Shown: one piece after another, positions 32,743 through 62,536 of the stretch
Layout: each line of letters begins with the position of its first letter
Numbering within the stretch: the first letter of the stretch is position 1
NCBI GenBank assembly: GCA_963751345.1
Contig: CAVVUS010000049.1
Coordinates: forward strand, 1 to 64,000
DNA length: 64,000 bases
Source of the DNA: an uncultured Chloroflexia bacterium
GTDB taxonomy: Bacteria > Chloroflexota > Anaerolineae > B4-G1 > SLSP01
Direction of reading: 5' to 3'
Program-made: the position numbers and the translations under genes
Notes under the pieces: model-generated
Told to the model about the DNA's origin: nothing
The model's input: only the letters and a program-made list of their open reading frames with translations
Database searches by the model: none

Positions 32743-32753
32743 GGAAACGGCGA

Positions 32754-33717: not shown

Positions 33718-35772
33718 ATGTCACAACCTGGCGAGCTCCTGCAGCAACGCTACCGGATCCTGGACCGGATCGGCGGGGGCGGGATGGGAACCGTCTACCT
33801 GGCGGAGGATGGCCGTCTGCAGGGACGCCGGTGTGCGATCAAGGAGATGTCGCCCGCCGCGCTTGCCCCCTCAGGACCGCGAGTGGTCCATCGATGCCTT
33901 TCGCCAGGAAGCCCAACTGCTGGCCAAACTCCACCACCCAGGCCTGACGGCAGTGACCGACTTCTTCGGCGAGAGCGGCAACTGGTACTTGGTGATGGAC
34001 TACGTGGAGGGGGAGACGCTGGAGACACGGCTGGCGTCCGCACCTGGGGGGACGTTCGCGGTGCCGGAGGCGCTGCGGGTGGCGCGGCAGTTGGTGGAAG
34101 TGCTGAACTACCTGCACACGCAGCCGACGCAGGTGATCTTCCGGGATCTGAAGCCGAGCAACGTGATGTGCATGGCGGACGGTCAGATCAAGCTGATCGA
34201 CTTCGGGATCGCGCGGTTCTTCAAGCCGGGGAAGGCGCAGGACACGGCATTGTTGGGGACGCCGGGGTATGCAGCGCCGGAGCAGTACGGGGGGATGGGG
34301 CAGAGCGACGCGCGGACGGACATCTACAGCTTCGGGGTATTGCTGAACCGGATGGTGACGGGGTTCGACCCGACCACGGCGGTGAGCCCGTTTCCGATCC
34401 CGGACCCGCGGGAGACGATGCCGTGGATTCCGGAGCAGGTAGCGCACGTGATCGTGAGGGCGACGCAGATGCGACCGGAGGAGCGGTACGGGAGCATCGC
34501 GGAGCTGGCGGCGGACCTGGCGACGCCGTCGCACCCCTTGCCGATGAGAACACGGACGGAGGTGATGCCGCCGCCTAGTGGAGGCACGCCCCCACTCAGT
34601 GGCAGTACGTCCCCCGGTGGCCAACAGCGATCGTTGCGCGCCGGATCACAGCCGGTGGGCCCCCAACCGGGGAGTTGGTCACAGCCGACCGGTTCGCAGG
34701 CAGGTGGCGGGGTGCCCCCAAGCGGTGGATCTTCCGCCTAGCGGCAGCCGGCCGCGGGCGGGACGAGAGCGCTCGGCGACCATCTGGTACGTGCTGGGCA
34801 TCGCGGGATTTGCGCTCCTCCTCTGTGCAGGGCGTCTCGATCGTCGCGGTCGCGCAGGGCATCATCCCGCTCCCCACCTTTCTCAGGACCACTACGACAC
34901 CCGCTGCGACCCGCGTCATTACCGGCGACGCTGAGACGCCCACGGCACCAACCAAAACTGCGACTCCGGAGGGACCGATGGCGCAGGAGCTCTCGACCGA
35001 GACGCCTACCGTCGATGCAACGGAGCCCCCACCAACAGCCACGCCGGTGGACGAGGCGGCGGTCCGAGCCACCGCCGAGGCCGATCGTCTTGCCGGCCTT
35101 CGCTACCGGCCGCAGAACGGGCAGCCGTTTATGGCCTACCGGCCTCCGAGCCCGATTGTCGTGGATGGCCAACTCGACGAATGGGACGGGGTGTCGTCGT
35201 ATCCGGTCGACGCCCTGGTCTACGAGGCGACGCCCGGCAATTGGTATGGCGCGAGCGATCTCTCGGGATCGGCGCAGGTGGCGTGGGATGAGGCTCACCT
35301 CTATCTGGCCGTCAGGGTCGTCGACGACGTTCACGTCCAGACCCAGACGGGGGATGCGATCTTTAGAGGTGACGAGGTCGAGATCCAGATCGACGCGAAT
35401 CTCCAGGGTGACTACGATGTCGCCGAGTTGTCGAGCGACGATGGCCAGATCGGGCTCTCTCCGGGTGATTTTGCCGGCATCGCGCCCGAGGCCTACATCT
35501 ACCGACCGCCCAGCCTGGAGCAGCCGGGCACGATGATCGGCGTCGCGGCGCTGGCGCTCCCTGACGGCTATATCCTGGAGGCCGCGATCCCCTGGGCGGT
35601 GCTGGGTGGCTTCCCCGGCAGTGGCGGCGCGGTGGGGTTCTGTCTGAGCTTGAGCGACGACGACAGCCCTGGGGTTGCCGAGCAGCAGACCTTGGTGTCG
35701 TCTTCGCCGAACCGTACGTGGCCCGATCCGACGACGTGGGGCACGCTCGTCTTGATGGATCAACCTAACTGA
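33718..35772 (+). CDS. Receptor Ser/Thr kinase 1: kinase-TM-P/T linker-CBM9/DOMON-like sugar-binding domain (frameshifts near 33870, 34730, 34830)
   Basis: IGGGGMGTVY, AIKE, FRDLKPSN, DFG, GTPGYAAPEQY; TM IWYVLGIAGFALLLCAGVSIVAV; IVVDGQLDEW...WDEAHLYLAVRVVDD...GYILEAAIPW. Confidence 0.85.
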
Positions 35773-35820
35773 TACATCAGTTGGATGCATCAGTTTGCGG
35801 AAGGAGACAGGGGGACGGAC

Positions 35821-37586
35821 ATGAGCTCGGGCGAGCGAGGGGTCGTGCTCTCGCGGCGGCAGTTTCTGGCAGGTGTGGCGGCTCTGGCTGCCTCCTCGCT
35901 GGCCGAGGCCCTGGCCGGGTGCACGCCTCAGCTCGACGAGCCCGCTCCCGGCCAGGTCATCCCTGAACCGTCGTCGACGTCTCGCCCGACTCCCGATCCG
36001 GTGCCATCTCCCACGGCTGCTCCGACCCTGGCGCCAAGCCCGACTGCGGATCCGGACCTGCCGCGTTTTGATGACTCAACGCTCACGCCGGTCTACGTCG
36101 CCCACGACGCCACGGCGCAGGGGTACCCTGCGCTCGTGCCTTTCGATCCCGACAGCGCCTATCCCGAGTTGCCTTACGCACCGGGCGCACTGACCCAGCA
36201 AAACGACGCCTACCGGCTGGTCCGCGACGCATTGCGCCTTCTCCACCCGGAGGGCTTCGGCAAGCCGGAGTGGAACCCGTTGGGGGGCGTGATCAAGCCG
36301 GGCGACGTGGTCTTGATCAAGCCCAACCTCGTCGACGGCTCCCAATGGGCAAACGGACAGACGACGCATCCGGCACACCTGCGCCCGATCGTCGATTACG
36401 CTTTCAAGGCGTGCGGCCCCACAGGACAGATCCTCATCGGCGACGGGCCGTGGGCCGTCGACGTCTTCGACAGCGTGGTCTCCGTCACCGGTATCCGCGA
36501 CATGGTGGCGACGCTGGCCCGCGACCACGGCGTGCCCGTGGCGCTGGCCGATTTCAACCAGCCCGGCCCCGACGCGTCTCCACTCGTCGACCTGGGTGAG
36601 CTCTCCGAGCTCCACGGGGTCGACCGGGTGTGGTATGACGGGCACGGCAGTGTGCTCTACGCCGGTGGAGACCCCGGCATCGGCAGCTACCGCATCGCGC
36701 AGCCCGTGCTCCAGGCCGACGTGGTGATCTCCGCTCCGAAGGCCAAGGTGCATTGCTCGGGCGGCATCACCGTCGCGATGAAGAACATGGTCGGCCTCAT
36801 CCCGGCGTGGGACGGGCCGCACGGCGACGGGCAGCTCAAGGAGTGCGCGCACACCAACGACGTCGATCAGGCTGCCGGGAAGCGCGGCATGTATCTCGAT
36901 AATGATACTATCTGGCGGTCGATGGCGGATCTCAACCGCATTCTGCTCTACGCCGATGCCGAGGGCACGATTGGCGCCCGCCCGTCAGCGGGGTTACTTG
37001 GCGATCGTCGACGCGATCGTGGCGGCAGAGGCCAGCCAATACGACCCCGTCCCGCATCCACTGGGCGCTGTCATCGTCGGGACCGACCCGGTCTCCGTCG
37101 ACGCGGTGACGTGCCCGCTGTATGGGGTTCGATCCTCGCAGGCTGAAGTCGGTCGTCAACGTGGCCCGGCGCCAGGACCACCCCCTGGGCACTGCGGATC
37201 CCGCCCGCGTCAGGGTCGTGGTTTCCGAAGGGGAGACGCTCAGCAGCGCCTTCCGCGAGGCGCTCCAACCCGAGCTCTACGTCTACTCGTGGGCAGGATC
37301 GCTGGAGGCGACGGACTTCGATCCACCGGAGCTTCTCACGTCGGGATGGGATCCCGGCGGCGGCCTCTTGCACGTGCGGCTGCGCGATCTTTCGGGCGTG
37401 GCGTGGGTTCGGGCGTCGTATACGGTCGACGGCGAGCGACGCATGAAAGCGCTCGCCCTGGTCGACGGCTCACCCGGCGAGGGGGAGTGGGCGGTCTCCT
37501 TCCCGTTGGGCGCCGAGGTCCAGCAGATCGACCTGGCGGCGGGGGACGCGGTGTTCAACGAGCAGTCGCAGATCATCACGTGGTAG
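35821..37586 (+). CDS. Tat-exported DUF362-domain protein with C-terminal Ig-like part (frameshifts near 36985, 37120)
   Basis: SRRQFL Tat motif, GDVVLIKPNLV, TTHP, PKAKVH, ITVAMKNMVG, GTDPVSVDA. Confidence 0.8.
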
Positions 37587-37600
37587 GTCGAGGTCGTTGT

Positions 37601-37694
37601 CGTAGAGACGTGCCGGTGGCACGTCTCCGGACGGAGATGAATGGTCGCGACAGGACCTCCGCGTCCGCAGACGCCCCACCGGGGCGTCTCTACG
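37601..37694. repeat. GTAG-type REP doublet
   Basis: GTAGAGACGTGCCggtGGCACGTCTC ... AGACGCCCCaccGGGGCGTCTCTAC. Confidence 0.8.
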
Positions 37695-37739
37695 AAAGAA
37701 CAATACGCGCTGAGGTAAACCAGTGAGGGAGACACCGGC

Positions 37740-39822
37740 ATGATGCAAGCGGGCGCAATGCTCCAGAATCGCTACCGGATCCTCGACCGCATCGGCGGGG
37801 GAGGGATGGGGACGGTCTATCTGGCGGAGGACAGCCGTCTGCAGGGACGCCGGTGCGCGATCAAGGAGATGTCGCCTGCCGCGCTGGCTCCCCAGGACCG
37901 CGAGTGGTCGATCGAAGCCTTCCGCCAGGAAGCCCAACTGCTGGCCAAACTCCACCATCCCGGCCTCACCGCGGTGACGGACTTCTTCGGCGAGAGCGGG
38001 AACTGGTACCTGGTGATGGACTACGTGGAGGGGGAGACGCTGGAGAAGCGGCTGGCGATGGCGCCGGGAGGGACGTTCTCCGTGCCGGAGGCGCTGCGGG
38101 TGGCGCGGCAGGTCGTGGAGGTGCTGAACTACCTGCACACACAGCCGACGCAGGTGATCTTCCGGGATCTGAAGCCGAGCAACGTGATGTGCACGGCGGA
38201 GGGGCAGATCAAGCTGATCGACTTCGGGATCGCGCGGTTCTTCAAGCCGGGGAAGGTGCAGGACACGGCGTTGTTGGGGACGCCGGGGTATGCGGCGCCG
38301 GAGCAGTACGGGGGGATGGGGCAGAGCGACGCGCGGACGGACATCTACAGCTTCGGGGTGTTGCTGAACCGGATGGTGACGGGGTTCGACCCGACGACGG
38401 CGGTGAGCCCGTTCCCGATTCCGGACCCGCGGGAGACGATGCCGTGGATTCCGGAGCAGGTAGCGCACGTGATCGTGAGAGCGACGCAGATGCGACCGGA
38501 GGAGCGGTACGGGAGCATTGCGGAGATGGCGGCAGGACCTGGCGACGCCGTCGCACCCTTTGCCGATGGGGACGCACACGGAGGTAATGGCGCCACGCAG
38601 TGGCGGTACGCCGCCACACAGTGGTGGTATGCCCACCGGCAGCAGGGTGCCCTCGAGTGGCGGTCTGCCGCCGAGTGGAGGGTTGCCGCAGAACGTGCGC
38701 GTGCAGCCCACGCCCCGGCGTTCCGCGGGGATCTGGATTGGGTTAGGGATCGCGGGGGTGATCGTCGTCTCTTGTGGCGGCCTCTCGCTCTTCGCCCTCT
38801 CCCAGGGTCTCATCCGGTTTCCCACGCTCGCGCGGTCCACTGACACGCCGACCGCGACCCTCGCATCTCAGGGCGATCCCCCCACGGGCACTCCCGATAG
38901 CCCTACGTCCCAGCCGCAGCCGACGTCAGAGACGGTCACTACAGTGCCGGTTGACGTCGTTGTAGCGCAGTCTACGTCGACGCCGACAGTGGCTCCCGTA
39001 CCCACGGTGACGCCGAAGCCTCGACCACCTCGCCTGGCCTACGTCACGGGCAACGTGGGGAACACGGACGTCTACGTGGCCGACGCCGATGGGCAGAATC
39101 CAACGTGCGTAGCGTGTGCCGCGTGTGATGAGGCGGAGCCCGCATGGGCGCCGGATGGCCGGACGCTCGCATATCAGTCCAACTGCGACGGGCAGCTATG
39201 ACATCTGGATCGTCGGGCGCGCCGGGCCGCGCCGCGCAGCGACTGACGCGGACGTGCGAACGTGGACGAGCGTGAGCCCGACTGGTCGCCTGATGGGACG
39301 CAGATCGTCTATCGATGCATCGCCCCTGGACGTGGCGCGCAATGAGGATGGTGAGCTGAGGTTGATCAGCCGCGATGGCTCCGCGGGACGCGGGCCTGGG
39401 CATCCAGGGGCGTTCTCCCGTCTGGTCGCCCGATGGCAGCAGACTGGTCTTTATGTCGCAGCGCGATGGAAGCTGGCAGATCTACGCCTACGAGTTTGGC
39501 AGCCGCCAGACGCACAAGATAACCGGTTGTACGGCCAACTGCCGCTGGCCCGGCCTGGTCGCCCGACGGCACTGCTGTGATCTACCACGCGACGACCGGG
39601 CCCGGCAGTGTGACTGCCGACGCTATCTGGTCCACGCCGCTGAGTGGGGGCGGAGGGATACAGGTGGTCAGCGGTATGCACGCCGGCAGGCCAAGTTGGT
39701 CGAGCGAGGGGTCGATTGTCTTTAACTCAGACAACGGGATCGAGGTTGTGACGGCGCAGGGCCAGGGGCGTCGTACTCTCATCGGGGGCGATGCGAACTG
39801 GGCCCCCGTGTGGTCCAGGTAG
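37740..39822 (+). CDS. Receptor Ser/Thr kinase 2: kinase-TM-P/T linker-TolB/PD40 beta-propeller (several frameshifts)
   Basis: Kinase domain near-identical to kinase 1; TM IWIGLGIAGVIVVSCGGLSLFAL; repeats EPAWAPDG, SPVWSPDG, RPSWSSEG, APVWSR. Confidence 0.85.
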
Positions 39823-39850
39823 GCTGCTCAGGTGGGGGATTGGGGGCGTT

Positions 39851-41270
39851 ATGAAGACCGCTTCTAGGAAAGAGATCACGTTAGGGCTGCTCATTGGGTT
39901 GGGCATCGGTATCCCTGCCCTTGTGCTGGCGCTGCTTCTGTCCCGCGCCGGCTCGGAGTCCGGCCAGGATGCTGCGACGGCGACGATCGCACCAGTGGCT
40001 GTGCCGTTCGATCTGCCGACCCCCACCGGCTCCGCGACAGCGTTGGGAACGCCCGCTCCCGTCGGATTGACCGGCACCCTCACGCCGGAGGGGTCGGAGT
40101 TGCCGACGCCGGGCGTCGTCACGCATACGGTTGAAGCGGGGGAAACCCTTGGGGGCATTGCCCTGGACTACGACGTTTCTCTTGAGGACCTTATTGCAGC
40201 CAACGACATCGAGAATCCCGACTTTGTCTCCATCGGTGAGATATTGACGATCCCGGTCACCTCGACGGTTACTCAGCCGACGGTTGAGCCAGGGGAGTCC
40301 GGAGCGACGGAATTCCCAACGCAGACGCTGAGCATCGCGCCGCCGCCGTCGGTCACGCTGGAGATCGTCTCTGCCGGTTACCCGGCAATAATGGAGGGTG
40401 ACCTCGACGCAGCGTACCCTTCGGTCGCCGCGTCAAGTCGCTTTGACGTTCACACCACGCCGGATACCTACCCGGAGGCCGATCTGCCGAACGTCACGGC
40501 GATGCTTTCCAGGGCGTTGACGCATATCGAGACGACGCTTGATGCACACATGGACGAGTCCTTCGACGTCTACGTCGCCGGCTCGCTCTTCGAGCCGCCG
40601 GATCAGGAACTGCGGGGACGGAGTTTCTCGGCGTCCCGTCGTTACTTTTTCCTCCACGACGGTACGGGGAATCCCGCCGATCAGCAGTACATTGCGACCC
40701 ACGAGATGACGCACGTCTTCGCCTGGAACGTCTTTGGTCGCCCGGTCTCGGCCATGCTCAGCGAGGGCGTGGCGGTCTACACCGGGATGACGGCGATCGA
40801 GGGGTCGGATCACGTGTCGTCCCAGGCGTTCTGTCGCGCCTACCAGGTCGGCGGAGAGCTCCCGCGCGTGTCCTCCACCTTGCTTTTCGAGGGCCACATC
40901 CGCGATCTGGCGAATTACTACGCCGCCGGGTGTTTCGTACAGTACTTGATCGAGACCTACGGGCACAGAGAAGTTCGGCGAGCTCTACCCCACGGGAGAC
41001 TATGCCAGGGCCTACGGGAAATCGCTCACCGCCCTGGAGAGTGAGTGGCGGGCGGCACTTCAGGCCAGCACCGTCGATCCGGTGCTCGACCCGGACCGTC
41101 TTCTCGCGGCAACCGAGGCGGTCGCCGATGCCTATGATGAACTCCTGACGGGATTCAGTGCCGACGATGCGGCCTGGCAGTCTTACCTCGAGATTGATGC
41201 GGCGCGGATCGCCCTGCTTGAGGGGCGCTTCGATGACGTGGATCTATACCTCGCTAAGGCAGACCTATGA
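39851..41270 (+). CDS. Membrane-anchored LysM + gluzincin (peptidase MA-like) protein (frameshift near 40965)
   Basis: N-terminal TM, HTVEAGETLGGIA...ANDI LysM, HEMTH...SEGVA zinc motif. Confidence 0.8.
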
Positions 41271-41304
41271 AGCACACATACTCCATCCTCGCCAGGAGGC
41301 CACG

Positions 41305-42204
41305 ATGAGATGTCCGCACTGCAATACTGAGAACCGCCCCGGCGCCCGTTTCTGCGGGCACTGTGGGCAACCCTTGGAGGCGGAAGCTCCTGAGACGCTG
41401 ACGTGCCCGACGTGTGGTGCCTCGGTCAAGCCGGGAGCGCGCTTCTGCCCGCGATGCGGCAGCGATCTGTCCGTCACCTCTCGCAGCCCCGGCGCCCGAG
41501 AGTGCCGAGCGCCGAGCCACCGCGGGGCACCGGCGCCGTCGTGCGTGCCTGGACCTCGAGTTCCGGATGGCGCCCGCACCCTATGTGGGGGCTTCCCTCT
41601 GAGCCCGGAGGCCCACGCCGTTTAAGAGGAGCCCCCGGGCTCTCAGGCACCATCGCCTCCCGTCGGACGGCGCCGGCGGCCGATGTGGCCCCTGGCGATC
41701 GTCGCGGCGCTGCTGTCTGGCCTGGTGCTTCTCTGTGTGATCGTGGCGGTCGCCGTCGGCCCCGCCTTCGGGGAGACGGTGCCGCCTCCGCCGACGGCGG
41801 ACCCCAACACCCCGGACATCACGATCACGGTCGAGGAGGACTACATCAGCAGCGTGATTGCCGATGCGCTTCCGGCTGCCCTCGCGGGCGACGCCGTCCT
41901 GGACGTGCAGCCGGACAACTTGATGGTGATGACGATGAACTTCAGTCTGGTGTTCGTCAGGTTGGAGGTCGTCGTCACCTCGAAGGTCTCCGTCGAGTCA
42001 GGGCGGATCAACGTGGCGGTCGAGAGCATCGAGACGGGCGGCCAGGATATTCTGGGCCTCTTGGGAATGGATGAGGTCTCGTTGGGACAGAATGTCACTG
42101 ACACGATACAGCACGGCCTCGAGGGCGAGTTGGGCGCGGGTGCCCATTTGCTGAGTATCACGACCGACGACCAACATGTGATCCTGACCGCGAGGTGGGA
42201 CTGA
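41305..42204 (+). CDS. Double zinc ribbon-Pro linker-TM-extracellular domain (LmeA/DUF2993-like, tentative); frameshifted in linker
   Basis: AGGAGG RBS; CPHC..CGHC, CPTC..CPRC; RRRRPMWPLAIVAALL TM; domain homologous to the next gene. Confidence 0.65.
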
Positions 42205-42205
42205 T

Positions 42206-42763
42206 ATGATGACCAAGTTGGTACGCAATCCGTTGGCGATGGTCCTGGTCGGTGCTGCCTTGGGTATCCTTGGCGGTGTCGTGCTGGGTGGGGTGCTTCT
42301 GTTGCTGCTTAACGTCGGGCCGACGGAGCTGGCTGCAGCGCCGGTCGCCACCTCCTACGATATCGAGGCAGTGGTGGAGGAGGACTACATCAACCGGATC
42401 ATGGTGGAGAATGCCAACAGCATGACCGGCCCGGTGACGCTCGTCGCGGGGCATCTGGACCTTCGTCCCGGCGCCGTGGCCGACTTCGTCGTCCAGATCA
42501 AGCTGGGCCCGCTGCAGCCGGTGGTCGACGGCACCGTGGGCTTCGTCGCCACCGATGATGGGTCGAGCATCGAGGTGCAACTGCTCGACGTGAAGATGGG
42601 GCGGCTCAGGCTCAACCGCCTCGTCCCATCCGGCGCGCTGGACGACGTGAACGCCGACATCAAGCGGCTCCTGATCGATAGGATTGGCTCGCAGGGGCTG
42701 ATCGTCCTGGACGTCCAGAGCGACGATACGTCACTGCGACTCCATTTCGGGAGGGGTCTCTAG
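42206..42763 (+). CDS. Membrane-anchored paralogue of the preceding extracellular domain
   Basis: N-terminal TM; DIEAVVEEDYINRI versus DITITVEEDYISSV; C-terminal DVQSDD versus SITTDD. Confidence 0.75.
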   Translation: MMTKLVRNPLAMVLVGAALGILGGVVLGGVLLLLLNVGPTELAAAPVATSYDIEAVVEEDYINRIMVENANSMTGPVTLVAGHLDLRPGAVADFVVQIKLGPLQPVVDGTVGFVATDDGSSIEVQLLDVKMGRLRLNRLVPSGALDDVNADIKRLLIDRIGSQGLIVLDVQSDDTSLRLHFGRGL

Positions 42764-42764
42764 G

Positions 42765-45665: not shown

Positions 45666-45667
45666 CT

Positions 45668-46351: not shown

Positions 46352-46397
46352 CGGGCGCTGCGTAAGATCGTCGGCTCCCAGTCCGTCTGAATAGACT

Positions 46398-49599: not shown

Positions 49600-49744
49600 G
49601 GCGTTCGATCCTTGTTGAGCTAGGCTGGCCTTTTCGCCCGTGATCTTATCTGGTTCCGGTCTGGTGGCAACGGCAGGCAGCCTGTTCTTCCGATGGTGGC
49701 ACGATTTCGGTCTCTGCGGGCCGACCTTATAGAGGAGCTGTCCT

Positions 49745-50688: not shown

Positions 50689-50714
50689 CGTTATCTTAGT
50701 CGTTGGGGGAATAG

Positions 50715-53086
50715 ATGCGACGCAATCATACGATAGGCCTACTGATTGGGGGCGGGGTAGCTGCTTCTGGCTGTGGGGGCCGTGCTGACCGTGGGCTTCC
50801 TGCGGGGTAGGCGCAGGGCCTTTGTCCTCGGGGGGACACGTTCCACCGTTGGCGACCGTATCGGCAATACCGCTCGATGCGCCACCATCCATCGAGGATC
50901 TGGTGGACGAATATCCGGAGCTGGCCGCGATCCTGACCGATCCGGAACTCGGCACAGTGTACAAGGAATTCTTGGTTGCCTATCAGGAAGGCGGGATTGA
51001 TGCCGCCGCCGAGCTCGCGAAGGAGCGTGGCATCCTCGCGCCGGATGGGTCGCATCTGATGGTGACCCTGGTTCTGGATACAGAGGACTCCACCGCTCTC
51101 GTTGCCCAGTTGACGGGGGTGGGGGTTGAGGTGGTCAGTGCCTATCAGGACCGAGTGAATATCGCCGTCCCGGTTGCCCTGATCGAACAGGCGATGCAGT
51201 CCGAGGACATCGGCGCCGTGTTCGGGCGCCTGACGGAACTCGACCATGTGGTCGCCGTGCGCCTGCCGAGTCAACGCGGCTCCAACCAGCAGTCGGGTGG
51301 CACGGAGGGCATTGCCGTGGTCGGGGCGGATAAGTGGCACGAGGCCGGCTTCACCGGGGCGGGCGTACGGATCGGTGTGTTGGATCTCGGCTTTGCCGGA
51401 TACGAGAAGCTGTTGGGGACGGCGCTGCCCGACAATGTGGAGGTCGAGACCTTCGGATGGTATGACAGGGAGGAGGTTCACGGCGCTGCCTGTGCCGAAA
51501 TCGTCCACGAGGTGGCGCCCGATGCCGAGCTCTTCTTCGCGTGGTACGACGGCAGCGACGCCGCGATGGGCGAGGCTGTGGACTGGCTGATGTCACAGAA
51601 CGTCGACATCATCACGCATTCTGCAGGCGGTGTCATCAGCCCACGGGACGGTACAGGATGGGACGCGCAGCTTGTCGACCAGACGACGGCACAAGGCGTC
51701 CTGTGGGTGAATTCGGCGGGTAACGAGGCGGACGTTCACTATCGCGGTGTCTTCAAGGATTCGGATGGCGATGGCTTCACCGAGTTTCCCTCGGGCTCGC
51801 AGTTGCTGCCGATCTACACGAACGGCCGGGTTCGCGTTACCCTGGTCTGGCAGGATGACTGGGATCGACCAACGCAGGACTTCGAGTTGACGATCCTTAA
51901 CGGTGATGGGGACATTCTGGCCTCATCCGAGGATGCCCAGGATGGTGGACCGGGACAACAGCCTGCGGAATGGGTGAGCCTGACCACAAGCGAATCGGTG
52001 GTCTATGCCACAATGTATGCGTATGCTGCCGACCGCAACGTGACCTTCGACATCTTCGCCTCGGGACCGGGTGCTGAGATTGCCGACGCGGTGCCCGCCT
52101 ACAGTGTCAACTCCCCGGGGGACGCGGTCAGCGCGTTGACGGTCGGTGCGGTGGACTGGAACGACGATCAACTGGCCTACTACAGCTCGCAGGGGCCGAC
52201 GACCGACGAACGGCTGAAGCCCGATATCTCGGGTCCTACAGGTGTTTCGGGGGCGACATATGGCCGGCGGGGGTTCGACGGAACGTCAGCCTCCGCACCT
52301 CATGTCGCCGGGGTCGCGGCTCTGGTGTGGGCGGCCTATCCGGGCTTCAGTCGTGAGGACCTCGTCAACTACCTGCTGGATTCGGTGGTCGATCTCGGCC
52401 CTTCGGGTCCCGACACCGGCTATGGCTATGGCCGGCTCAACCTACCCGCACCGCCAAACGGCGTCATCGGGCAGCCGACCCCAACGCCATCTGCCGGCGT
52501 CTCCGGTGCACCGGGGCGTGCGACGGCAGTGCCGGGAGGCCTGGCCACGGCGACGCCCGTTGCTTTCACGACGCCGGAGCCTGTGGCTGCCAGCGCTGGC
52601 GGGGGGGCGGGCTCACTGCTCCTCGTCCTCCTGCTGTTGGGCGGGTTCGGGCTGGGGGGAGGCGGGCTGCTTCTGGTCGGCGGCATTCTGTTGATTGCGG
52701 ATCTTCGTTCGCGGAGTCGCCAACGGACGGCATCGGCTGCAGCACCGGTCGCCATTCGGCCACAGCCACAGGTACCTCGGCCGCAGGCGCCCTATCGTCC
52801 GGCGGTCAGTCCGCGGGTGGAGACGTTGAATCCGACGCAACCATGGCTGCCGACGGCGGATGCTCCCGACCGGCCGATGCAAATGCCGCCCGCATCGCAG
52901 GAGAACCCTCCGGTTTCGGCCGAGTATTGTCCTACGTGCGGGAGTGCCGTGCGGCAGGGAGCGCACTTCTGTGCGAAGTGTGGAGCGTCGCTGAGCACTC
53001 CGTCGCACCACAAGTTCTGCCGGTACTGCGGCGCACCGTTGGATGCAGATAGCCGTTTCTGTACCTCTTGTGGACGGCCCGTGTAG
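50715..53086 (+). CDS. Membrane-anchored S8 subtilase with C-terminal cytoplasmic double zinc ribbon (5' frameshifts)
   Basis: Triad motifs IGVLDLG, HGAACA, GTSASAPHVAG; NSAGN; TM LLLVLLLLGG..; CPTC..CAKC, CRYC..CTSC; signal-like MRRNHTIGLLIGGG at 50715. Confidence 0.88.
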
Positions 53087-53172
53087 ATCGATCGTGCCCT
53101 GTCGTGCCACTTGCACCACGGGTCAAAGCGTACTATCGTTAGAATGTCGCGTCAGCAAAGAGGAGGGGTGCA

Positions 53173-53950
53173 TTGAGACCGAGACTTGGCCAGCGTTCGA
53201 CGACTGCGGCGGCATTGTGCCTGATCTTCCTGCTGTGGTTGGCGGGGTGTGGTCTGCTCGACACCCCGACAGCACTTCCTAGCGGCGAGTCCGTCTCCGA
53301 TCCCGGAGCGGTCACAGCACAACCCACGATTTCCCCGACAGCCGAGGCGACGACTCCCATCGGAGAGGCGAGTCCAATTGCGCCTGCCCAGGGATTGTTC
53401 GACTGGTTCTCACAGCATCTGGGGCGGACAGGTCTCCTGCTGGCGCTTCTGGCAGTGGTTGTCATGCTGCTGGCCATCGTGGTCATTGTCTTGGTCAGGC
53501 TCCTGACGCGGGCCCCGCAAACCTTCACAGACGGTGGCAGCGCCGGCGGTTCCGTCGCAAGGCATGCCTCGCCAGGGCGGGGGTAGTACCCGCGAGCTCA
53601 CCGGCGCACCCTCCGGTGCAACGCTGGTGCTGCAGGCGACGGGCAAGGAGGTACCCCCGGGAGAGCTGCCGACCTTCACGCTGAAGGCTGCCGGCGTGAC
53701 GATTGGACGGGAACCTGACAACGATCTGGTGATTGATGATGCCACGCCGGGCGCGGACACGGTCTCACGACGCCACGCTCGCGTTGTCCTTGAGGATGGG
53801 CATTGGATCGTCGAGGATCTGGACTCCCAGAATGGCATCTACGTCAACGGCCGGCGGACGGGCCGAAACCTGCTTCAGGATGGCTGGACGCTGGCGATCG
53901 GCGGCGTTCAGTTCATTTTCTATAACGGAACTGGGAGGACAGCGCAATGA
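53173..53950 (+). CDS. Lipoprotein-signal, TM, cytoplasmic FHA protein (frameshift near 53530)
   Basis: LAGC lipobox, TM LLLALLAVVVMLLAIVVIVLV, IGREPDND..VSRRHA..DLDSQNG. Confidence 0.75.
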
Positions 53951-55740
53951 AGTGCCCGAGGTGTGGCACCGAAAACGCATCGGATGCCGGCTACTGTGAA
54001 GAGTGTGGTGCGAGCTTTGGGGCCGCGCCCGCATCGGTGGCGGCGACCGGTAGCCTGAGCACGCGTCAACTGCAAGCAGGCCCAGCGACGCCGAAGAGTG
54101 GTGTGAGCTCGCTGAAGGATACAACACCGTTGGGGGAGTTCACGAACCGGTTTGCGGCACTTCCCGAAGGGGCGATTCTCGGCCGACGCTACATCGTGCG
54201 CGAGGTGCGGGTCGAGGGTGAGACCCATAACGTCTATCTGGCCGAGGGTCTCGTTCCTGCACATGAGTGTCCGAACTGTCACGCCGTCAGCGAAACCGAG
54301 GACGAGCGCTACTGCTCCGACTGTGGGGCGGAATTGCAGGGCACGGAACCTGCTGTCCGGCGCTATCTTGTGCAGGAGCGGGTGAACGGAAATGCCTTCG
54401 CGATGGAGCGCCAGCTTCTGGGCATGCAGCTCGCCCACCCGGGGCTGCTGTTGCCCCTGGAGGTGTTCCAGGAGGCTCCCTACGGCGACGCTCGCACCTA
54501 TCGCGTGGTGCCTGAGTTTGCGCCTCCCCTGGCACAGACCCTGGTACTTCCACAGCCATGGGGCAAAGTTGTGTCCTGGGGGGCCGCGCTGGCGCAAGCG
54601 ATGGCGCATCTCCACCAGCACCAGATCGCCATTGGCGCGGTGGATGTGGCCCACATTGCTGTGGATGGCGACCAGGCGCTGTGGACCGGACTTAGCGATG
54701 TAAAGATCCTTCCACCGGAGCAGCGAAGTGATGCCGGTCAAGTCTTTGCCGTGGATGTCCAGCGACTTGCCGCCGCTCTCATCTACTTAGGGACGGGGAA
54801 AGAGCAACCCGCCACCGGACTCGAGCTGCCGGTAGGACTCAAGCAACTGCTAGGACAGGCTCTCGACGGGATCAGTGCGGCGCAGTTGGCGGCGCAGCTT
54901 CGTGCGCTGCTCGGGGGGAATGGCCGGTCGAGCTATGTGTCGCTGGTCGTGGGGGCGCGGAGCGATGTCGGACCCGTTCGAGAGCTCAATGAGGACAAGG
55001 CGTTGACGCGTAACCTCTCGGCCGGTAACGGGCCGGGACCCGCAGTGGGCCTCGTTCTGGTGGCGGATGGTATGGGAGGCTACGATGCCGGGGAGGTCGC
55101 GAGCGACCTGGCCTGTCGCGCGGTCGCCGCCCTGGCGGAGACGGAGCCGCCGCGTGTGACCCCCTGGGGCGACGTGGTGCCCGAGCCGGGTGAGTGGCTC
55201 ACCCGGGCAGTGCAGGCGGCCAACCGGTCGGTGTTCGATCAACGCCGCGCGGCGAGTTCCGATATGGGCACGACGATGGTGACCGCGCTGGTGATCGGCG
55301 CCGGCATAGATGGCGAGACCGACTCGGCCCCGGCGGCAACGGCGACGATCGCCAATGTGGGCGACAGCCGATGCTACCATCTCGGCGACGGGTCGATCCG
55401 GCGGGTGACCGTTGATCATTCCCTCGTCGAGCGTCTTGTTGCGGCGGGGCAGATCACGGCGGAGGAAGCTATCAACCATCCCCAGCGGAACGTCATCTAC
55501 CGGGCAATCGGTGACCAGCCGGAGGTCGAGGTGGACCTCTATGCTCAGTTGCTTCGCCCTGGCGAGGCTCTGCTCCTCTGCTCGGACGGGTTGAGCGGCA
55601 AGGTGCGCGATGAGCGACTACTGCAGATCTGGCAAGCTTCGATGTCGCCCCAAGAGGCGTGTGACCGGATGGTCGAGGCTGCTGTTCAAGCTGGAGGCGA
55701 GGACAATATCACGGCTGTCATCATCCGGGCAGTGCCATGA
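53947..55740 (+). CDS. Zinc ribbon-pseudokinase-PP2C phosphatase fusion
   Basis: CPRC..CEEC; kinase-like RYIV..VYLAE, HPGL, LAQAMAHLHQ without HRD/DFG; PP2C RELNED, VADGMGG, NVGDSR, LCSDGL, GGEDNIT. Confidence 0.88.
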   Translation: MKCPRCGTENASDAGYCEECGASFGAAPASVAATGSLSTRQLQAGPATPKSGVSSLKDTTPLGEFTNRFAALPEGAILGRRYIVREVRVEGETHNVYLAEGLVPAHECPNCHAVSETEDERYCSDCGAELQGTEPAVRRYLVQERVNGNAFAMERQLLGMQLAHPGLLLPLEVFQEAPYGDARTYRVVPEFAPPLAQTLVLPQPWGKVVSWGAALAQAMAHLHQHQIAIGAVDVAHIAVDGDQALWTGLSDVKILPPEQRSDAGQVFAVDVQRLAAALIYLGTGKEQPATGLELPVGLKQLLGQALDGISAAQLAAQLRALLGGNGRSSYVSLVVGARSDVGPVRELNEDKALTRNLSAGNGPGPAVGLVLVADGMGGYDAGEVASDLACRAVAALAETEPPRVTPWGDVVPEPGEWLTRAVQAANRSVFDQRRAASSDMGTTMVTALVIGAGIDGETDSAPAATATIANVGDSRCYHLGDGSIRRVTVDHSLVERLVAAGQITAEEAINHPQRNVIYRAIGDQPEVEVDLYAQLLRPGEALLLCSDGLSGKVRDERLLQIWQASMSPQEACDRMVEAAVQAGGEDNITAVIIRAVP

Positions 55741-55779
55741 TGGCGTGAACCGACGCGACGACTAGACGGGAGGGGTGCG

Positions 55780-57999
55780 ATGAAGCTGCAACGTGTTCTG
55801 CTAAAGGTGATATGTTTGGCGGTCCTGTTCTCCGTGGGGTCGGTGCTCGTCGGTGCCCAGGATCTGGAGCCTCCTATCGTCGATATCCTTGGGCGGCCGG
55901 ATTCGCGTTCGGCGCCTCCCGATGTAAGCGCCTACGTGTCGGTTGTGGATCGCCCCAGTGGCCGGGTCATTGAGGGTCTGCAGGATGCCAATTTCTCGGC
56001 GCAGATCTCTGAGGAGGAGATTCAGCCGACGGTGGCTCTGGACACGACCGGTCTGGCGGTAGTGATGGTGATCGACCGGGGCGGGATCGCGCGTCGCAAC
56101 GACCCGCGTATCGGCAGTGCCGTGGATCTTGCGAGCGCCCTGCTCAATATGCTCAACGTTGACGGAACGCCCACAGCCGATCTCGTTGCCCTAATCGGCA
56201 TTCGCGGACAGGATCAGGGCGGGCTGACGCCTGCGGTGAATTTCACCGACTTCGACCCAGTCGCCATCAGCAACCAGTTTGATGCCCTGCGGACCGAGGT
56301 GGTGGACGAGACGACGCCGCTCTACGATGGGATCGACCGGGCGATCTCGTGGATTGCGAGCAACCCCGACCCAGCGATCCAGGACAAGCTGGCGCTTCGC
56401 CGCAAGATCATCTTTGTCTTCTCCGACGGCATCGACCGCGGTTTCAGCGACGAGTCGCACGAGGCCCTGATCGTCGATCAGGCCCAGCAGAACGACATCC
56501 TCATTTACGCGATCCAGATGACGGCGAACGGGAGGACCGCGGAGTCTGATAGCCTGAACGCCATGGCGACGCAGAGCAACGGCACCTTCTTCGTCGACAG
56601 CCCGGACACGCACGACCAGGTGATCTCGCACTTCCAGGACATCGTGACGCAGCGGCAGGCCTATCGTGTGACCTTCCCGCTGACCCGACCTCTGGGTGAC
56701 TACCAATTGCAGATCCGGGTGCTCAATGCGCCCGGGGGCGCCGGATCAGATATGAGCGTGGTATCTTCGAACCTGCAGAAGCCGGTCATCACCCTCAACG
56801 CTCCGCCCAATCCGACGTTCGTCGTGCCATACTCGGAGGACGATGGCGGATTCGTCACCACGATGGTGCCTTTGACGGTGCTGCTCAGCAACCGCGACGG
56901 CGCGCCTCGCAATCCCGATGAGGTCTCGTACTTCGCCAACGAGCAGCGCATCGGTGTGTCGGGTGATGTGCCCGACTATGCCTTCACGTGGGACGTGACG
57001 AACCTCGCCGCCCCGTCCACCGACCGGATCACAAGGACCTACACGCTTGTAGCGCGCGCAACCGACCCTTATCTCGACGAGGAGTTGCAGAGTCAACTGG
57101 TCGACGTGCAGGTGGCCTGGGAGCCACAGCCTGAGGCGGCCCCCCAGACGGTGTCGGAGGCGGTGACCGCCAGCGTCGCGGAGACGTGGTGGGTGCTACC
57201 GATCTTCGGTGTCCTGGGACTCGGGTTGATCGTCGTCATCGTACTGCTTGTTCGAACGCGCGGACAGGTCGCCCGGAAGGTCGTGCAGAATACCAGCACG
57301 GCAATCAAGGGGGTGACGCAGCGCCTGGGGAGCGGGGGGGCGATGCCTGCGGCCAGCGGCAAGCTCGTCGTGGTCCAGGGCCCGCGTATGGGCAACGAGT
57401 TCAGCTTGGCGACCCCTGCCGCGAGGGTTGGGCGAGATGCTGAGTTCAGCGATTTTGCCCTCAACGACCGGTTCGTCTCCAATCCGCACTTCACGATCCT
57501 GGAGGAAGGGGGGCAGTTCTACATCCGCGACGAGGGGAGTACCAACCGAACTCGCGTGAACGGCGTCGTCATCCCGCCTAACCAGCGCCTACCACTCTCG
57601 CCGGACGCCATCATTGAGGCGGGGCAGACTCGAATGCAGCTCAAACGATTGGGCGGCGACACGCGCCGGGTGGGCGCCTCGGAGACGGTCTATGCGCCTC
57701 AGACGGCGAATGCGCCTCAGACGGCGAATGCGCCTCAGACGGCGGGCGCGCCTCAGACGGCGGGAGGTCGTCCGACAGTCGCTGCGGGGCGAGGGCCTAG
57801 CTCGCCCGGGATCTCCCCGACGCGGATCGTATCTCCTCGCCAGGAGGAGCCGCGTGGTGATACGGCGGCGCCGACGGTCATCTCAGAGGACGCGGAAGAT
57901 GCTGCGACCCGGCAGCGGGCCTCCGAGGATGAAGACAAGTACAAGACGAGGAACGTCTCAGACGATAGGTACAAGACGAGGAACATCAGACAGGAGTAG
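55780..57999 (+). CDS. Signal peptide-VWA-Ig-like-TM-FHA protein with repetitive Thr-containing tail
   Basis: VMVIDRGG, TPLYDGI, FVFSDG (VWA); TM WWVLPIFGVLGLGLIVVIVLLV; VGRD..VSNPH..DEGSTNRT FHA. Confidence 0.85.
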   Translation: MKLQRVLLKVICLAVLFSVGSVLVGAQDLEPPIVDILGRPDSRSAPPDVSAYVSVVDRPSGRVIEGLQDANFSAQISEEEIQPTVALDTTGLAVVMVIDRGGIARRNDPRIGSAVDLASALLNMLNVDGTPTADLVALIGIRGQDQGGLTPAVNFTDFDPVAISNQFDALRTEVVDETTPLYDGIDRAISWIASNPDPAIQDKLALRRKIIFVFSDGIDRGFSDESHEALIVDQAQQNDILIYAIQMTANGRTAESDSLNAMATQSNGTFFVDSPDTHDQVISHFQDIVTQRQAYRVTFPLTRPLGDYQLQIRVLNAPGGAGSDMSVVSSNLQKPVITLNAPPNPTFVVPYSEDDGGFVTTMVPLTVLLSNRDGAPRNPDEVSYFANEQRIGVSGDVPDYAFTWDVTNLAAPSTDRITRTYTLVARATDPYLDEELQSQLVDVQVAWEPQPEAAPQTVSEAVTASVAETWWVLPIFGVLGLGLIVVIVLLVRTRGQVARKVVQNTSTAIKGVTQRLGSGGAMPAASGKLVVVQGPRMGNEFSLATPAARVGRDAEFSDFALNDRFVSNPHFTILEEGGQFYIRDEGSTNRTRVNGVVIPPNQRLPLSPDAIIEAGQTRMQLKRLGGDTRRVGASETVYAPQTANAPQTANAPQTAGAPQTAGGRPTVAAGRGPSSPGISPTRIVSPRQEEPRGDTAAPTVISEDAEDAATRQRASEDEDKYKTRNVSDDRYKTRNIRQE
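57694..57765 (+). repeat. 4 x 18-bp in-frame tandem repeat (APQTAN/APQTAG)
   Basis: GCGCCTCAGACGGCGnnn x4. Confidence 0.9.
57931..57990 (+). repeat. 2 x 30-bp in-frame repeat (EDKYKTRNVS/DDRYKTRNIR)
   Basis: Shared core GTACAAGACGAGGAAC. Confidence 0.85.
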
Positions 58000-58004
58000 A
58001 CACA

Positions 58005-59180
58005 ATGCCTATTTGCGCGAATTGCGGCGCCCAGCAGCCGGAGGGAGTGGCTTTCTGTGATGAGTGCGGCGCCCCATTGCGAAGCCAACAGGTGCCCGCG
58101 CAGCCGTCCCCGGCTGCAGGGCAGGCACGGACCGTGGTCGCCTCTAACGTCTGTCCGGTCTGTGGTGCGCGGACCTCGCCGCAGGATCCCTTCTGTTCGA
58201 ATTGTGGCGCTGCATTGAGAGAGGCGGCATCTGGTGTGGTGGCTGACGGGCAACCGCAGAACCTACCCCAACAGCAGGCTGTCTCGCAGCCGCCGGCGGA
58301 GCCCTGGCCAATGCCTGCCCCTGGCGCGTCGGCCGATGCCCCTACGGCTTTTGGGCAACCTGGAGTGTCTCCGCCGCAGGCGCCTGCACCCCAAGCTGGC
58401 CTCGGAGCGACCGTCGTCTCGGGGCAGGGGGGGCGTGGGATGGCGGGTGGCATTCCCCCGCAGGAGCTCTACGGTCCGCCCGGTGGCTTACCACCGGCCG
58501 GCGCCAATCTGCCCGCACCCGGTCCACTGATCTGCACGAACTGCGGGGCAAAACTCGAGCCCGACAGTGCATTTTGCGATATGTGTGGCGCTCCCGTGCG
58601 CCCACCGGCGTCTCAGAGTGCGGCCGCGCCTCAGCAGGTGCCGCAGCCTCGGACCGCATCCGGGTCCCAAGTATGGGGCCCGCCCGAGCCCGGAGCCGGC
58701 CCCTCGGCGGCTGAGCCCACGCAAACAACATCACCGCCGGCCCAGACGCCGGATGCTACTTCGTTAGCGTGGGGAGGTGAGTTGGGTACGTCGCAGTCTG
58801 CGCCACCTGTGGCCTCGGGGTATGAGGATGTTGAGCCGGCGCCTCGGCCGCCGCTGACCGGGAGGTTCATCATACAGGGGACTGACGCATCTCTGCCGAT
58901 CCCGCCCGGACAGATCGAAGTGATAGTCGGGCGAGAGGATCCTGTCAGGGGAATCCACCCCGATATTGACTTGACCGACCACGGCGGCGACGAAGGCGGC
59001 GTTTCGCGGAGGCACGCCCGGATCATCGTCGAGAGCGGTCAGTTCTACATCGAGGATCTCGAAAGCCTCAACCACACGCTTCTCAACCAGGAGCAGTTGA
59101 CGCCCGGGCACCTACGCCCACTCCATACCGGAGATGAAGTCGCCTTTGGCCGCGTGATAACCATCTTCCAGAGGACGTGA
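58005..59180 (+). CDS. Triple zinc ribbon-Pro linker-FHA cytoplasmic protein
   Basis: CANC..CDEC, CPVC..CSNC, CTNC..CDMC; VGRED..GVSRRHA..DLESLNHT. Confidence 0.88.
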   Translation: MPICANCGAQQPEGVAFCDECGAPLRSQQVPAQPSPAAGQARTVVASNVCPVCGARTSPQDPFCSNCGAALREAASGVVADGQPQNLPQQQAVSQPPAEPWPMPAPGASADAPTAFGQPGVSPPQAPAPQAGLGATVVSGQGGRGMAGGIPPQELYGPPGGLPPAGANLPAPGPLICTNCGAKLEPDSAFCDMCGAPVRPPASQSAAAPQQVPQPRTASGSQVWGPPEPGAGPSAAEPTQTTSPPAQTPDATSLAWGGELGTSQSAPPVASGYEDVEPAPRPPLTGRFIIQGTDASLPIPPGQIEVIVGREDPVRGIHPDIDLTDHGGDEGGVSRRHARIIVESGQFYIEDLESLNHTLLNQEQLTPGHLRPLHTGDEVAFGRVITIFQRT

Positions 59181-59359
59181 GAGCATCCGTGCTGGAATCG
59201 CGGATTTCTACGAACGCCGTAGGTTTGACGGCGGAAGTCCGGGACGCCGACCTCTTGGGCGGCGCGCCCGTCAGGATCACGTCGGAACGCGAGCAACCGC
59301 GATCCGTCGAGTCCAGCCAACGCGTATACTCTGGGAATCCGAGATCTCGCGAGCAGGTC

Positions 59360-60418
59360 ATGTATTCCCGGGTCGCCCAAAGACTGGACGGCGTGTTGCA
59401 TCGTGCCGAGATAGGCGATCCGAGTTGTGGGCACGTGAGCTTCGATGTGCACACGGACCGTTACATCCTCTTCTCCGACCTGCATCGCGGGGCGCGAACT
59501 GCTGCGGATGAGTTTCAGGGGGCCGAACGTGCCTATCGCGCTGCGCTTGCGTACTATCTCGAACTCGGCTACACCCTGGTCGTCCTGGGCGATGCCGAGG
59601 AGCTCTGGGAGGAACGTGCGGCTGCTGTTCTGGCTTCCTATGGTGAGACTTTCGAGCTCGAGGCAGAGTTCCATCGCCGGAGGAGATACCTGAGGATCTG
59701 GGGCAATCACGATGACGAGTGGCAGTATCCGGCCGGGGTTGGTCGGCTATTGGCACCTGTCTACGGATCACCTCGACTGCAGGTTTATGAGGGCATCCTT
59801 GTCGAGATGACCGAGGGTGATCGGACCTTGGGCCGGCTGTTCCTTGTGCATGGCCATCAGGGCGATGCGAGAAGCGATCGTTGGGCGTGGGCTTCGAAGC
59901 TGGTGATCCGCTATCTCTGGCGTCCCTATCAGCGATTGACGCGAGCGAGGATCAACACACCTGCGACAAGCTGGGGCCTCCGTGACAAGCTCAACCGCGC
60001 GATGTACGCGTGGGCGGAAACGCAAGGCAAGCTGGTGTTGATCGCGGGACATACACACCATCCGGTCTTCAGGTCGATGTCGCACGAGGCGCGAATCCGG
60101 GCGCGGCTGGCGGAGCTCGAAGCAGCCGCCGGAGATCCGATGCTGCCCTCCGAACGGCTGGAAATCGCCTACCTGCGCGCACAATTCCAGTGGGTCCGGA
60201 CGTCTAATCAAGGGTCCCAGCGGCAGCCGGAGGGGATCTCCTTCGATACGCCCTGTTATTTCAACACCGGATGCTGCTGCTATGATGACGGTGACATCAC
60301 GGGCCTTGAGATCGCTGACGGCGAGATCCGCTTGGTGCGGTGGCCCGACGATTATGGCGAACCACGTCCTCACGTGCTTGATCGCGACAGGCTGGACGCC
60401 GTGCTGGCTGCTTGCTGA
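59360..60418 (+). CDS. Calcineurin-like metallophosphoesterase
   Basis: SDLH, LGDAEE, GNHD, HGH, GHTH, NTG. Confidence 0.85.
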   Translation: MYSRVAQRLDGVLHRAEIGDPSCGHVSFDVHTDRYILFSDLHRGARTAADEFQGAERAYRAALAYYLELGYTLVVLGDAEELWEERAAAVLASYGETFELEAEFHRRRRYLRIWGNHDDEWQYPAGVGRLLAPVYGSPRLQVYEGILVEMTEGDRTLGRLFLVHGHQGDARSDRWAWASKLVIRYLWRPYQRLTRARINTPATSWGLRDKLNRAMYAWAETQGKLVLIAGHTHHPVFRSMSHEARIRARLAELEAAAGDPMLPSERLEIAYLRAQFQWVRTSNQGSQRQPEGISFDTPCYFNTGCCCYDDGDITGLEIADGEIRLVRWPDDYGEPRPHVLDRDRLDAVLAAC

Positions 60419-62528: not shown

Positions 62529-62536
62529 CAGATGGC

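Follow-up and report, generated by a model that had tools for sequence, protein, structure and literature searches.

The first 64 kb of the 114-kb contig C49 (GenBank CAVVUS010000049.1) from an uncultured Chloroflexota genome (G000; 5.4 Mb in 49 contigs, 63% G+C), hereafter the window, contains at positions 33718 to 60418 a cluster of genes coding for Ser/Thr kinases (STK), FHA proteins, zinc ribbon proteins, a PP2C phosphatase, an ABC exporter and surface peptidases. The interpretation that we favor, and consider probable, is that of a modular envelope locus of this Anaerolineae-type genus, in which phosphothreonine (pThr) would control an Rv1747-type machine for lipid or glycolipid export and surface proteolysis. 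Rather than a wholly new kind of system, it seems to be a modular version of the known envelope systems regulated by kinases, FHA domains and PP2C.

In the exporter, the nucleotide-binding domain (NBD; ABC_tran, residues 328 to 474) and the permease (ABC2_membrane, residues 641 to 867) are found on the same polypeptide, together with two FHA domains (matches at 43107 and 43419) in which the GR..S..H..NG motifs can be read. The NBD is nearest to the ABCG/White family (TIGR00955), and the ratio of nonsynonymous to synonymous substitutions (dN/dS) of the gene is 0.10. It lies directly downstream of two previously unannotated genes that, on the basis of structural modeling, we newly assign as tandem paralogs with a TULIP (LmeA/BPI-like) fold. 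Incidentally, contig C22 of the same genome carries, at 93.4 to 98.4 kb and 169.9 to 172.5 kb, a second pseudokinase-PP2C (38% identity) beside two kinases similar to STK3 and a paralogous FHA-FHA-ABC gene (1085-aa open reading frame [ORF]) beside a separate FHA protein.

The first member of the TULIP pair (DZR-TULIP) has a cytoplasmic double zinc ribbon (DZR), one transmembrane (TM) helix and an outer domain with the lipid-binding fold; in G000, its linker is garbled and there is an in-frame stop at 41623. The second is a protein of 185 aa without any PF11209 (LmeA) match in Pfam. Its AlphaFold2 model, obtained with an alignment of 24 sequences, reached a pLDDT of 93.1 and a pTM of 0.81, superseding an unusable earlier model from seven close orthologs (pLDDT 39.8). 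In a structural scan of the full PDB, this model retrieved CETP (Z 8.9, rmsd 3.0 over 133 residues), BPI (8.3), YceB (7.4) and P47 (6.7), followed by a carotenoid-binding protein (5.8) and by OrfX2, OrfX1-OrfX3, JHBP and Takeout (5.2 to 5.5). The nine best matches were all TULIP-type, unrelated folds scored 4.5 or less, and Foldseek also recovered BPI (E 5e-4). Sequence profiles indicate that the 185-aa protein and the outer region of DZR-TULIP are paralogs, with an hhalign probability of 93.8% (E 1.7e-7, 159 columns) against the TM and outer domain of DZR-TULIP, which the profile of the 185-aa family matches at 1e-18 to 1e-21. In the ESM Atlas, an LmeA-like Chloroflexota cluster was found at 0.93. 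The top structural matches are members of the TULIP lipid-binding superfamily. Passages of PMC7643837 place LmeA and BPI in this superfamily and describe phospholipid binding by LmeA. The family is small: a search of 1.84 billion proteins (E up to 0.001) gave just 21 cluster representatives. It occurs in 34 of 401 genomes of the class (G000 included), often as tandem pairs; the TULIP-TULIP-FHA2-ABC adjacency was found again in another family (G461, one of the 16 loci fetched).

The gene inventory was established by ORF listing, a frame plot of G+C at third codon positions (GC3), a simple gene call and Pfam scans, and the genes with broken frames were characterized through their intact orthologs in a relative, G002. 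It consists of 16 genes on the forward strand and one ORF on the reverse strand (48235 to 49983), as in the initial annotation, whose counts of FHA domains (five in four proteins, i.e., two in the exporter and one each in TM-FHA, VWA-TM-FHA and the zinc ribbon [ZnR]-FHA adaptor) and of CxxC..CxxC zinc ribbons (13 in six proteins, 2+2+2+2+2+3, counted on the intact orthologs) proved exact. The three receptor kinases described there, with different outer domains (CBM9, a PD40 propeller and a domain without family), were also recovered; they are Hanks kinases, each with intact VAIK, (H/F)RD and DFG motifs. Catalytic or ligand-binding motifs were likewise seen in the five FHA domains, the NBD, PP2C, the S8 peptidase and the metallophosphoesterase. 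The 27 kb of the locus, ca. 0.5% of the genome, hold 5 of its 16 FHA, 7 of its 17 DZR and 3 of its 20 Pkinase matches, and the clustering of FHA and DZR domains is far above chance. Core genes are tightly spaced (gaps of 1, 1, 46, 39 and 5 nt; overlaps of 4 nt), and the effector genes of the locus are single copy in the genome. With dN/dS values of 0.02 to 0.19 in all eight genes tested, the locus is under purifying selection. A scan of 41 to 61 kb for promoters and terminators was uninformative (6 and 10 sites versus 3.1 and 8.9 in shuffled sequences).

Two peptidases and a lipoprotein accompany the exporter. Translation of the lipoprotein probably begins downstream of 45587. The C-terminal domain of this protein is ca. 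40% identical to residues 58 to 199 of the S8 subtilase, and its lipobox is conserved. Neither this domain nor the N-terminal domain of the subtilase gave any family by PDB profile or Pfam at E values up to 5, and the label "propeptide-like" has its basis in their position only; a predicted complex between the lipoprotein domain and the S8 catalytic domain scored 0.00, which is uninformative either way. In the subtilase, the catalytic D/H/N/S residues are conserved in six of six aligned homologs, and the N-terminal TM region has two frame changes in G000. One homolog from outside the genus (G023:C60, 92 to 2848) has a cytoplasmic FHA-FHA tail instead of the DZR, next to an ABC protein with extra FHA domains (1215-aa ORF). 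The LysM peptidase, with one frame change near 40964 in G000, is present in G002, G015, G016, G011, G018, G003 and G024 and absent in G010.

The signaling genes come next. TM-FHA was found in G001 and G024 and was not seen in G010. In the phosphatase, the PP2C catalytic motifs are invariant in six of six aligned proteins. Its middle region is likely, though not proven, to be a pseudokinase judging from sequence comparisons: nine of the ten best Atlas hits with a family belong to the kinase clan, PDB profiles give kinases only weakly (E 0.7 to 1.6), the alignment has no equivalents of HRD, DFG and VAIK, and Pfam gives no kinase match. VWA-TM-FHA has an FHA part resembling FhaB/FipA (1e-14) and a degenerate metal ion-dependent adhesion site (MIDAS), with DRGGI in four of four orthologs versus the canonical DxSxS. 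Within its gene, an 18-nt tandem repeat (57692 to 57762; 3.9 copies, 94% matches) encodes NAPQTA four times in the cytoplasmic tail, and this may be a multivalent Thr array. A TANAP repeat resembling it is found in the linker of DZR332 in G002. The ZnR-FHA adaptor is present in every locus extending that far, except in G001. As called, the metallophosphoesterase gene shares its first 4 nt with the end of the gene before it, and the real start is probably near 59300; the metal-binding motifs of the protein (DxH, GD, GNHD, GH and GHTH) are conserved in three of three sequences, and it has no NCBIfam family.

TABLE 1 Features of the locus, in order along the window (E values refer to Pfam domain matches unless stated otherwise)
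Feature	Position	Strand	Evidence and remarks
STK1, Hanks kinase-TM-CBM9 receptor kinase	33718..35772	+	Pkinase 6.5e-37, CBM9_1 5.3e-23; accessory
Tat-signal DUF362 protein	35785..37586	+	DUF362 2e-22; accessory, frameshifted in G000
STK2, kinase-TM-PD40 beta-propeller receptor kinase	37740..39822	+	Pkinase 3.2e-43, PD40
TM-LysM-HExxH (MA-clan-like) metallopeptidase	39791..41270	+	LysM 1.1e-10; Peptidase_MA_2 weak, 0.0069; HEMTH motif
DZR-TM-TULIP (LmeA-like) protein	41305..42204	+	DZR 2.2e-14; sub-threshold LmeA
TM-TULIP protein, 185 aa, no Pfam family	42206..42763	+	AlphaFold2 model, PDB structural scan
DZR-FHA-FHA-NBD-ABC2 half-transporter, Rv1747-type with extra double zinc ribbon	42765..45665	+	FHA 1.4e-36 (2 stretches), ABC_tran 6.4e-28, ABC2_membrane 1.1e-13, DZR 1e-11
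Lipoprotein, 254 aa, lipobox Cys, Pro/Thr linker and C-terminal ~125-aa domain	45587..46351	+	Homology to S8 N-terminal domain
STK3, kinase-TM-outer domain without family	46398..48257	+	Pkinase 8.7e-51; accessory
Antisense membrane-anchored glycoside hydrolase-like protein	48235..49983	-	PslG (GH39) match; accessory
DZR332, DZR-TM-outer domain without family	49745..50688	+	DZR 5.3e-12 on G002 ortholog (332 aa); accessory
TM-N-domain-S8 subtilase-TM-cytoplasmic DZR	50715..53086	+	Peptidase_S8 3.6e-31, DZR 7.4e-11
TM-TM-FHA protein	53173..53950	+	FHA 3.9e-18; 278 aa in G002; frameshifted in G000
ZnR-kinase-like-PP2C phosphatase, second ZnR inserted in kinase-like part	53947..55740	+	PP2C_2 1.5e-10, PP2C 3e-10
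Signal peptide-VWA-beta-rich region-TM-FHA, NAPQTA x4 tail	55780..57999	+	FHA 2.2e-12; VWA_2 weak, 0.0036, below cut-off
Soluble ZnR x3-FHA adaptor	58005..59180	+	Zn_Ribbon_1 1.4e-19 (3 stretches), FHA 5.1e-14
Cytoplasmic metallophosphoesterase	59177..60418	+	Metallophos 3.8e-06

We compared the locus across 22 genomes of the genus (G000 included; close kin are not independent). The 185-aa protein and VWA-TM-FHA were each present in 13, with both in 12 genomes, neither in 8 and only one in 2. G002 carries a collinear locus, and G010, G001, G015, G016, G012, G007, G431 and G433 have compact versions of it. As far as contigs reach, the shared order is STK, (LysM peptidase), DZR-TULIP, TULIP, FHA2-ABC, lipoprotein, (STK3, glycosidase-like gene, DZR332), S8-DZR, (TM-FHA), pseudokinase-PP2C, VWA-TM-FHA, ZnR-FHA and metallophosphoesterase. 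Rather than being scattered without synteny, the homologs of writers, readers, erasers and envelope proteins are thus kept together in relatives. Reduced versions also occur: G003 retains only the LysM peptidase, the TULIP pair, S8-DZR, ZnR-FHA and the metallophosphoesterase, and G432 only TM-FHA, pseudokinase-PP2C, VWA-FHA and a PP2C. Two other members of the class (G151 and G376) have PP2C, VWA-TM-FHA, DZR-FHA and two STKs on their own. In a different family of the same order (G024), the succession is TM-FHA, pseudokinase-PP2C, DZR-FHA, STK, FHA2-ABC, STK, PP2C, STK-PD40, LysM peptidase, STK and S8-DZR, an order different from that of G000. Across the phylum, near-full-length VWA-TM-FHA was found in only 3 of the 401 genomes sampled (G000 included). 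The comparison was also extended to 185,579 species genomes, whose 80 best FHA-ABC loci (from Chloroflexota, Myxococcota, Cyanobacteria and other phyla, those of G002 and G010 included) were examined for neighbors within 10 kb by tblastn with the reference proteins, an approach that misses distant homologs. STK was a neighbor at 38 loci, PP2C at 17, S8 at 11 and a PP2C with kinase-like region at 9; the TULIP pair (3), VWA-TM-FHA (1) and the metallophosphoesterase (1) were rarer.

Frame changes, or in one case an in-frame stop, interrupt at least 8 of the 17 genes in G000 (STK1, DUF362, STK2, LysM peptidase, DZR-TULIP, DZR332, the S8 N terminus and TM-FHA). We consider it likely that these breaks are assembly errors that reflect a patchy assembly quality of the genome, because the frameshifting indels versus G002 are patchy over the whole aligned region (16 to 62 kb), outside the locus too, they are mostly single extra bases of G000 in a nonhomopolymer context, all the broken genes are intact in G002 (ca. 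95% identical over the locus) and dN/dS is low. For instance, there are 12 indels in 20 to 22 kb, 7 in 32 to 34 kb and 15 in 40 to 42 kb, and none in 24 to 30 kb or 42 to 46 kb; flanking genes such as LacI (28115 to 29311) and an alcohol dehydrogenase (60438 to 61486) are also split. In view of the patches outside the locus, of the nonhomopolymer extra bases and of the frame errors that G002 itself has, pseudogenization specific to the locus was rejected as the main cause. The two genomes also differ in divergence along the locus, with DNA identity of only 72 to 84% at 47000 to 55500 and 57500 to 59400 and of 95 to 99% in the rest of the locus and the flanks. These divergent blocks (dS 0.58 to 1.09; dN/dS 0.11 to 0.19) look like allelic replacement by recombination, as judged from the substitution pattern, and VWA-TM-FHA, located between them, is unaffected.

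Several known systems share parts with the locus. In passages of PMC3138270, PknF regulates Rv1747 in Mycobacterium tuberculosis, and the locus shares with this pair two N-terminal FHA domains followed by an NBD and an ABC-2 permease on a single polypeptide, as well as the proximity of Hanks kinase genes. Parts of PMC5549992 tie Rv1747 to the levels of phosphatidylinositol mannoside (PIM) glycolipids and propose PIM as cargo, which fits the TULIP neighbors found here. Unlike Rv1747, the exporter has an additional double zinc ribbon at its N terminus, the linker between its FHA domains is short, it sits amid a TULIP pair, S8-DZR, pseudokinase-PP2C, VWA-TM-FHA, ZnR-FHA and metallophosphoesterase, and 3 of 13 related loci do without it. 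The "TerY-P" triad is a related vWA/kinase/PP2C arrangement. The vWA-STK-FHA-PP2C operon of Deinococcus radiodurans (DRA0331-0334), as presented in sections of bioRxiv 10.64898/2026.01.23.701218, co-encodes the same four domain types; in contrast, the VWA here is extracellular, with a degenerate MIDAS, and joined via a TM helix to FHA, the PP2C bears a ZnR-pseudokinase and not KI-FHA, and the block is joined to membrane effectors. Mycobacterial LmeA shares with the pair a TULIP-type fold, sub-threshold matches to the LmeA Pfam model and location on the outer face; the proteins here are much shorter, single domain, TM-anchored and tandem paralogs, one with a cytoplasmic DZR. The PpkA-PppA-Fha1 system of type VI secretion (T6SS), according to parts of PMC5995506 and PMC12607579, follows the same logic, gating an envelope machine through an FHA reader, a PP2C and a membrane kinase whose sensor domain is outside, although the machine here is an ABC exporter plus a protease, the analogy is functional only, and no T6SS genes were seen within the window. 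In PMC7159879, the passages on FHA, PP2C and zinc ribbons concern other systems. The composition of the locus is not described in the literature searched and PADLOC has no named system for it, so that in this respect the initial annotation, which recognized none, stands, although the parts are of known kinds (Rv1747/PknF and vWA-STK-FHA-PP2C operons).

A mechanism can be proposed for the pThr-controlled export and proteolysis that we favor. The receptor kinases would phosphorylate threonines in disordered cytoplasmic linkers and tails, and the FHA domains on the exporter, VWA-TM-FHA, TM-FHA and the soluble ZnR-FHA adaptor would read these pThr marks. The zinc ribbon tails found on the exporter, on DZR-TULIP and on the protease might act as a common docking module, an idea suggested by two observations, namely that ribbons recur in all the blocks and that a relative has FHA domains instead of the DZR on its S8 tail. 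In this way, the exporter, the lipid acceptors and the protease would be activated or clustered together; FHA-driven clustering has reportedly been described for T6SS and Rv1747. PP2C, and perhaps the metallophosphoesterase too, would reset the phosphorylation state. Lipid or glycolipid leaving through the exporter would be taken over at the outer face by the TULIP pair, and the subtilase and LysM peptidase would remodel surface proteins or the wall. The CBM9 kinase, STK3, the glycosidase, DUF362 and DZR332 may be strain-level sensor or accessory add-ons. A more specific version, which we regard as unlikely, would be a hitherto undescribed pThr-gated route of lipid or lipoglycan export in Chloroflexota, in which the exporter hands its cargo to a heterodimeric TULIP pair, with a docking code of ribbons and FHA domains building an exporter-acceptor-subtilase cluster in the membrane under the control of the kinases.

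The initial annotation saw here one self-contained circuit. This is overstated: the genes are linked, but they form a patchwork of modules that can occur apart, and five of the genes are accessory. One can ask whether neighboring modules work independently, i.e., a PknF/Rv1747-like pair, a vWA-FHA-PP2C-kinase operon and a protease/TULIP operon lying together in a kinase-rich region, a possibility that we rate as unlikely. Each block does occur without the others: the ABC gene is missing from 3 of 13 loci (the otherwise similar ones of G011, G018 and G003), G151, G376 and G432 have the PP2C/VWA-FHA/DZR-FHA/STK module by itself, and G024 has the ABC and S8 genes and no TULIP match. The second pseudokinase-PP2C with its kinases and the second FHA-FHA-ABC of the genome also fit this alternative. 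The separate occurrence of the blocks also weighs against a joint export and proteolysis machine, and so do several other observations. The linker between the FHA domains of the exporter is only ca. 33 residues, unlike the long phospho-acceptor linker of Rv1747; the best score with the Pfam LmeA model (PF11209) is 20.8 bits versus a gathering threshold of 27.3, with sub-threshold matches in four of six DZR-TULIP orthologs; a shared TULIP fold, here a predicted one, is not proof of lipid binding; 9 of the 16 TULIP-family loci from other families have no neighbor resembling any protein of the locus; the docking role of the ribbons is purely conjectural; and decay of the G000 copy, with half of its genes broken, has to be kept in mind. 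Against independence of the modules, the order and tight spacing are kept across eight other genomes of the genus, the TULIP and VWA-FHA markers co-vary (both in 12 of the 22 genomes, neither in 8), zinc ribbon or FHA tails are common to proteins of all the blocks, and G024 reassembles the same families in a different order.

Secretion and maturation of a peptide or protein, exported by the ABC protein, processed outside by the membrane subtilase and regulated by the kinases, appears improbable to us. NisT/NisP for lantibiotics and the mycosin of type VII secretion (T7SS) are the cases to compare. An S8 gene lies within 10 kb of FHA-ABC in 11 of the 80 best loci, the lipoprotein bears a copy of the S8 N-terminal domain, and the nearest NCBIfam model of the subtilase is the T7SS mycosin (TIGR03921), with a score (51.8 bits) well short of the cut-off of 278.75. 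However, the permease is of ABC-2 type and the NBD is ABCG-like, not that of a peptide exporter, S8 persists in loci without the ABC gene, and among the called genes of the window there is no precursor peptide, modification enzyme or FtsK/EccC/EssC-like ATPase. Even less credible, and in our opinion very improbable, is a system for intercellular conflict, contact or phage defense with polymorphic surface parts, conflict and contact being among the roles initially suggested. It would agree with the two divergent blocks between genomes that are otherwise 95 to 99% identical, and kinase, ABC and subtilase domains do match PADLOC models. These matches are generic, though, and 5 of 10 proteins have none; the dS and dN/dS of the blocks point to recombination under purifying selection; and Pfam scans revealed no toxin, nuclease or mobile-element gene. 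Given the generic matches and the dN/dS values (0.02 to 0.19 over the locus), the reading as a defense system was rejected.

STK1, DUF362, STK3, the antisense glycosidase-like gene and DZR332 are accessory. The sensing of glycan cues attributed initially to the locus derives solely from such genes and is not upheld. In G000, STK1 is spread over three frames (changes at ca. 33865 and 34729/34832) and is an intact protein of 683 aa in G002. Of the loci compared, just those of G000 and G002 have the DUF362 protein, which is 599 aa long in G002 and has a twin-arginine SRRQFL motif. STK2 has several frameshifts in G000 and 696 aa in G002, with orthologs in G015, G011, G018 and G024. STK3, which begins 46 nt past the gene following the exporter, is absent from G010, G001, G015 and G011. 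The antisense ORF, a putative glycoside hydrolase, is also present in G002 and G431. Its best PDB match, PslG (GH39), is weak (E 0.017 in a search to E 10); GNEPN and ITETGW motifs are present, and there is no Pfam match and no PDB sequence match at E values up to 0.01. DZR332 is frameshifted in G000, where tblastn recovers two pieces in the window. The outer domains of STK3 and DZR332 have no Pfam family at E values up to 5.

The genes on both sides of the locus belong to ordinary metabolism. Upstream (26271 to 33596) are a BNR/Laminin_G protein, the split LacI gene, an alpha-L-fucosidase, an epimerase and a tandem cytidylyltransferase-like gene, the latter being the conserved left neighbor of the locus in G002, G010, G015, G018 and G003. 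Just past its stop and 80 nt before STK1, there is a perfect 36-nt palindrome of AACGTT units (33602 to 33637), a candidate hairpin or operator for the left border of the locus. Downstream, the alcohol dehydrogenase is followed on the reverse strand (61626 to 64000) by a PFL-like glycyl-radical enzyme, which runs off the window, and its radical-SAM activase; they adjoin the locus in G002 and G011 too.

What is known of signaling by Hanks kinases, FHA domains and PP2C in bacteria comes mostly from a small number of cases in actinobacteria, firmicutes and T6SS. For the kinase-rich filamentous Chloroflexota, this locus provides a compact and fairly well delimited set of candidate targets (an exporter, two proteins with a lipid-binding fold and a protease), and the natural variants without single modules are ready-made controls. 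The interchange of zinc ribbon and FHA tails on the protease gives a handle on the role of DZR domains. The pThr-gated export route, if true, would point to a functional connection between Rv1747 and LmeA in mycobacteria, two proteins that are no more than co-mentioned, in two papers, in the literature searched. The most useful new lead is the presence of LmeA-like TULIP proteins beside an Rv1747-type exporter, from which a testable hypothesis about the cargo route of this exporter family can be drawn.

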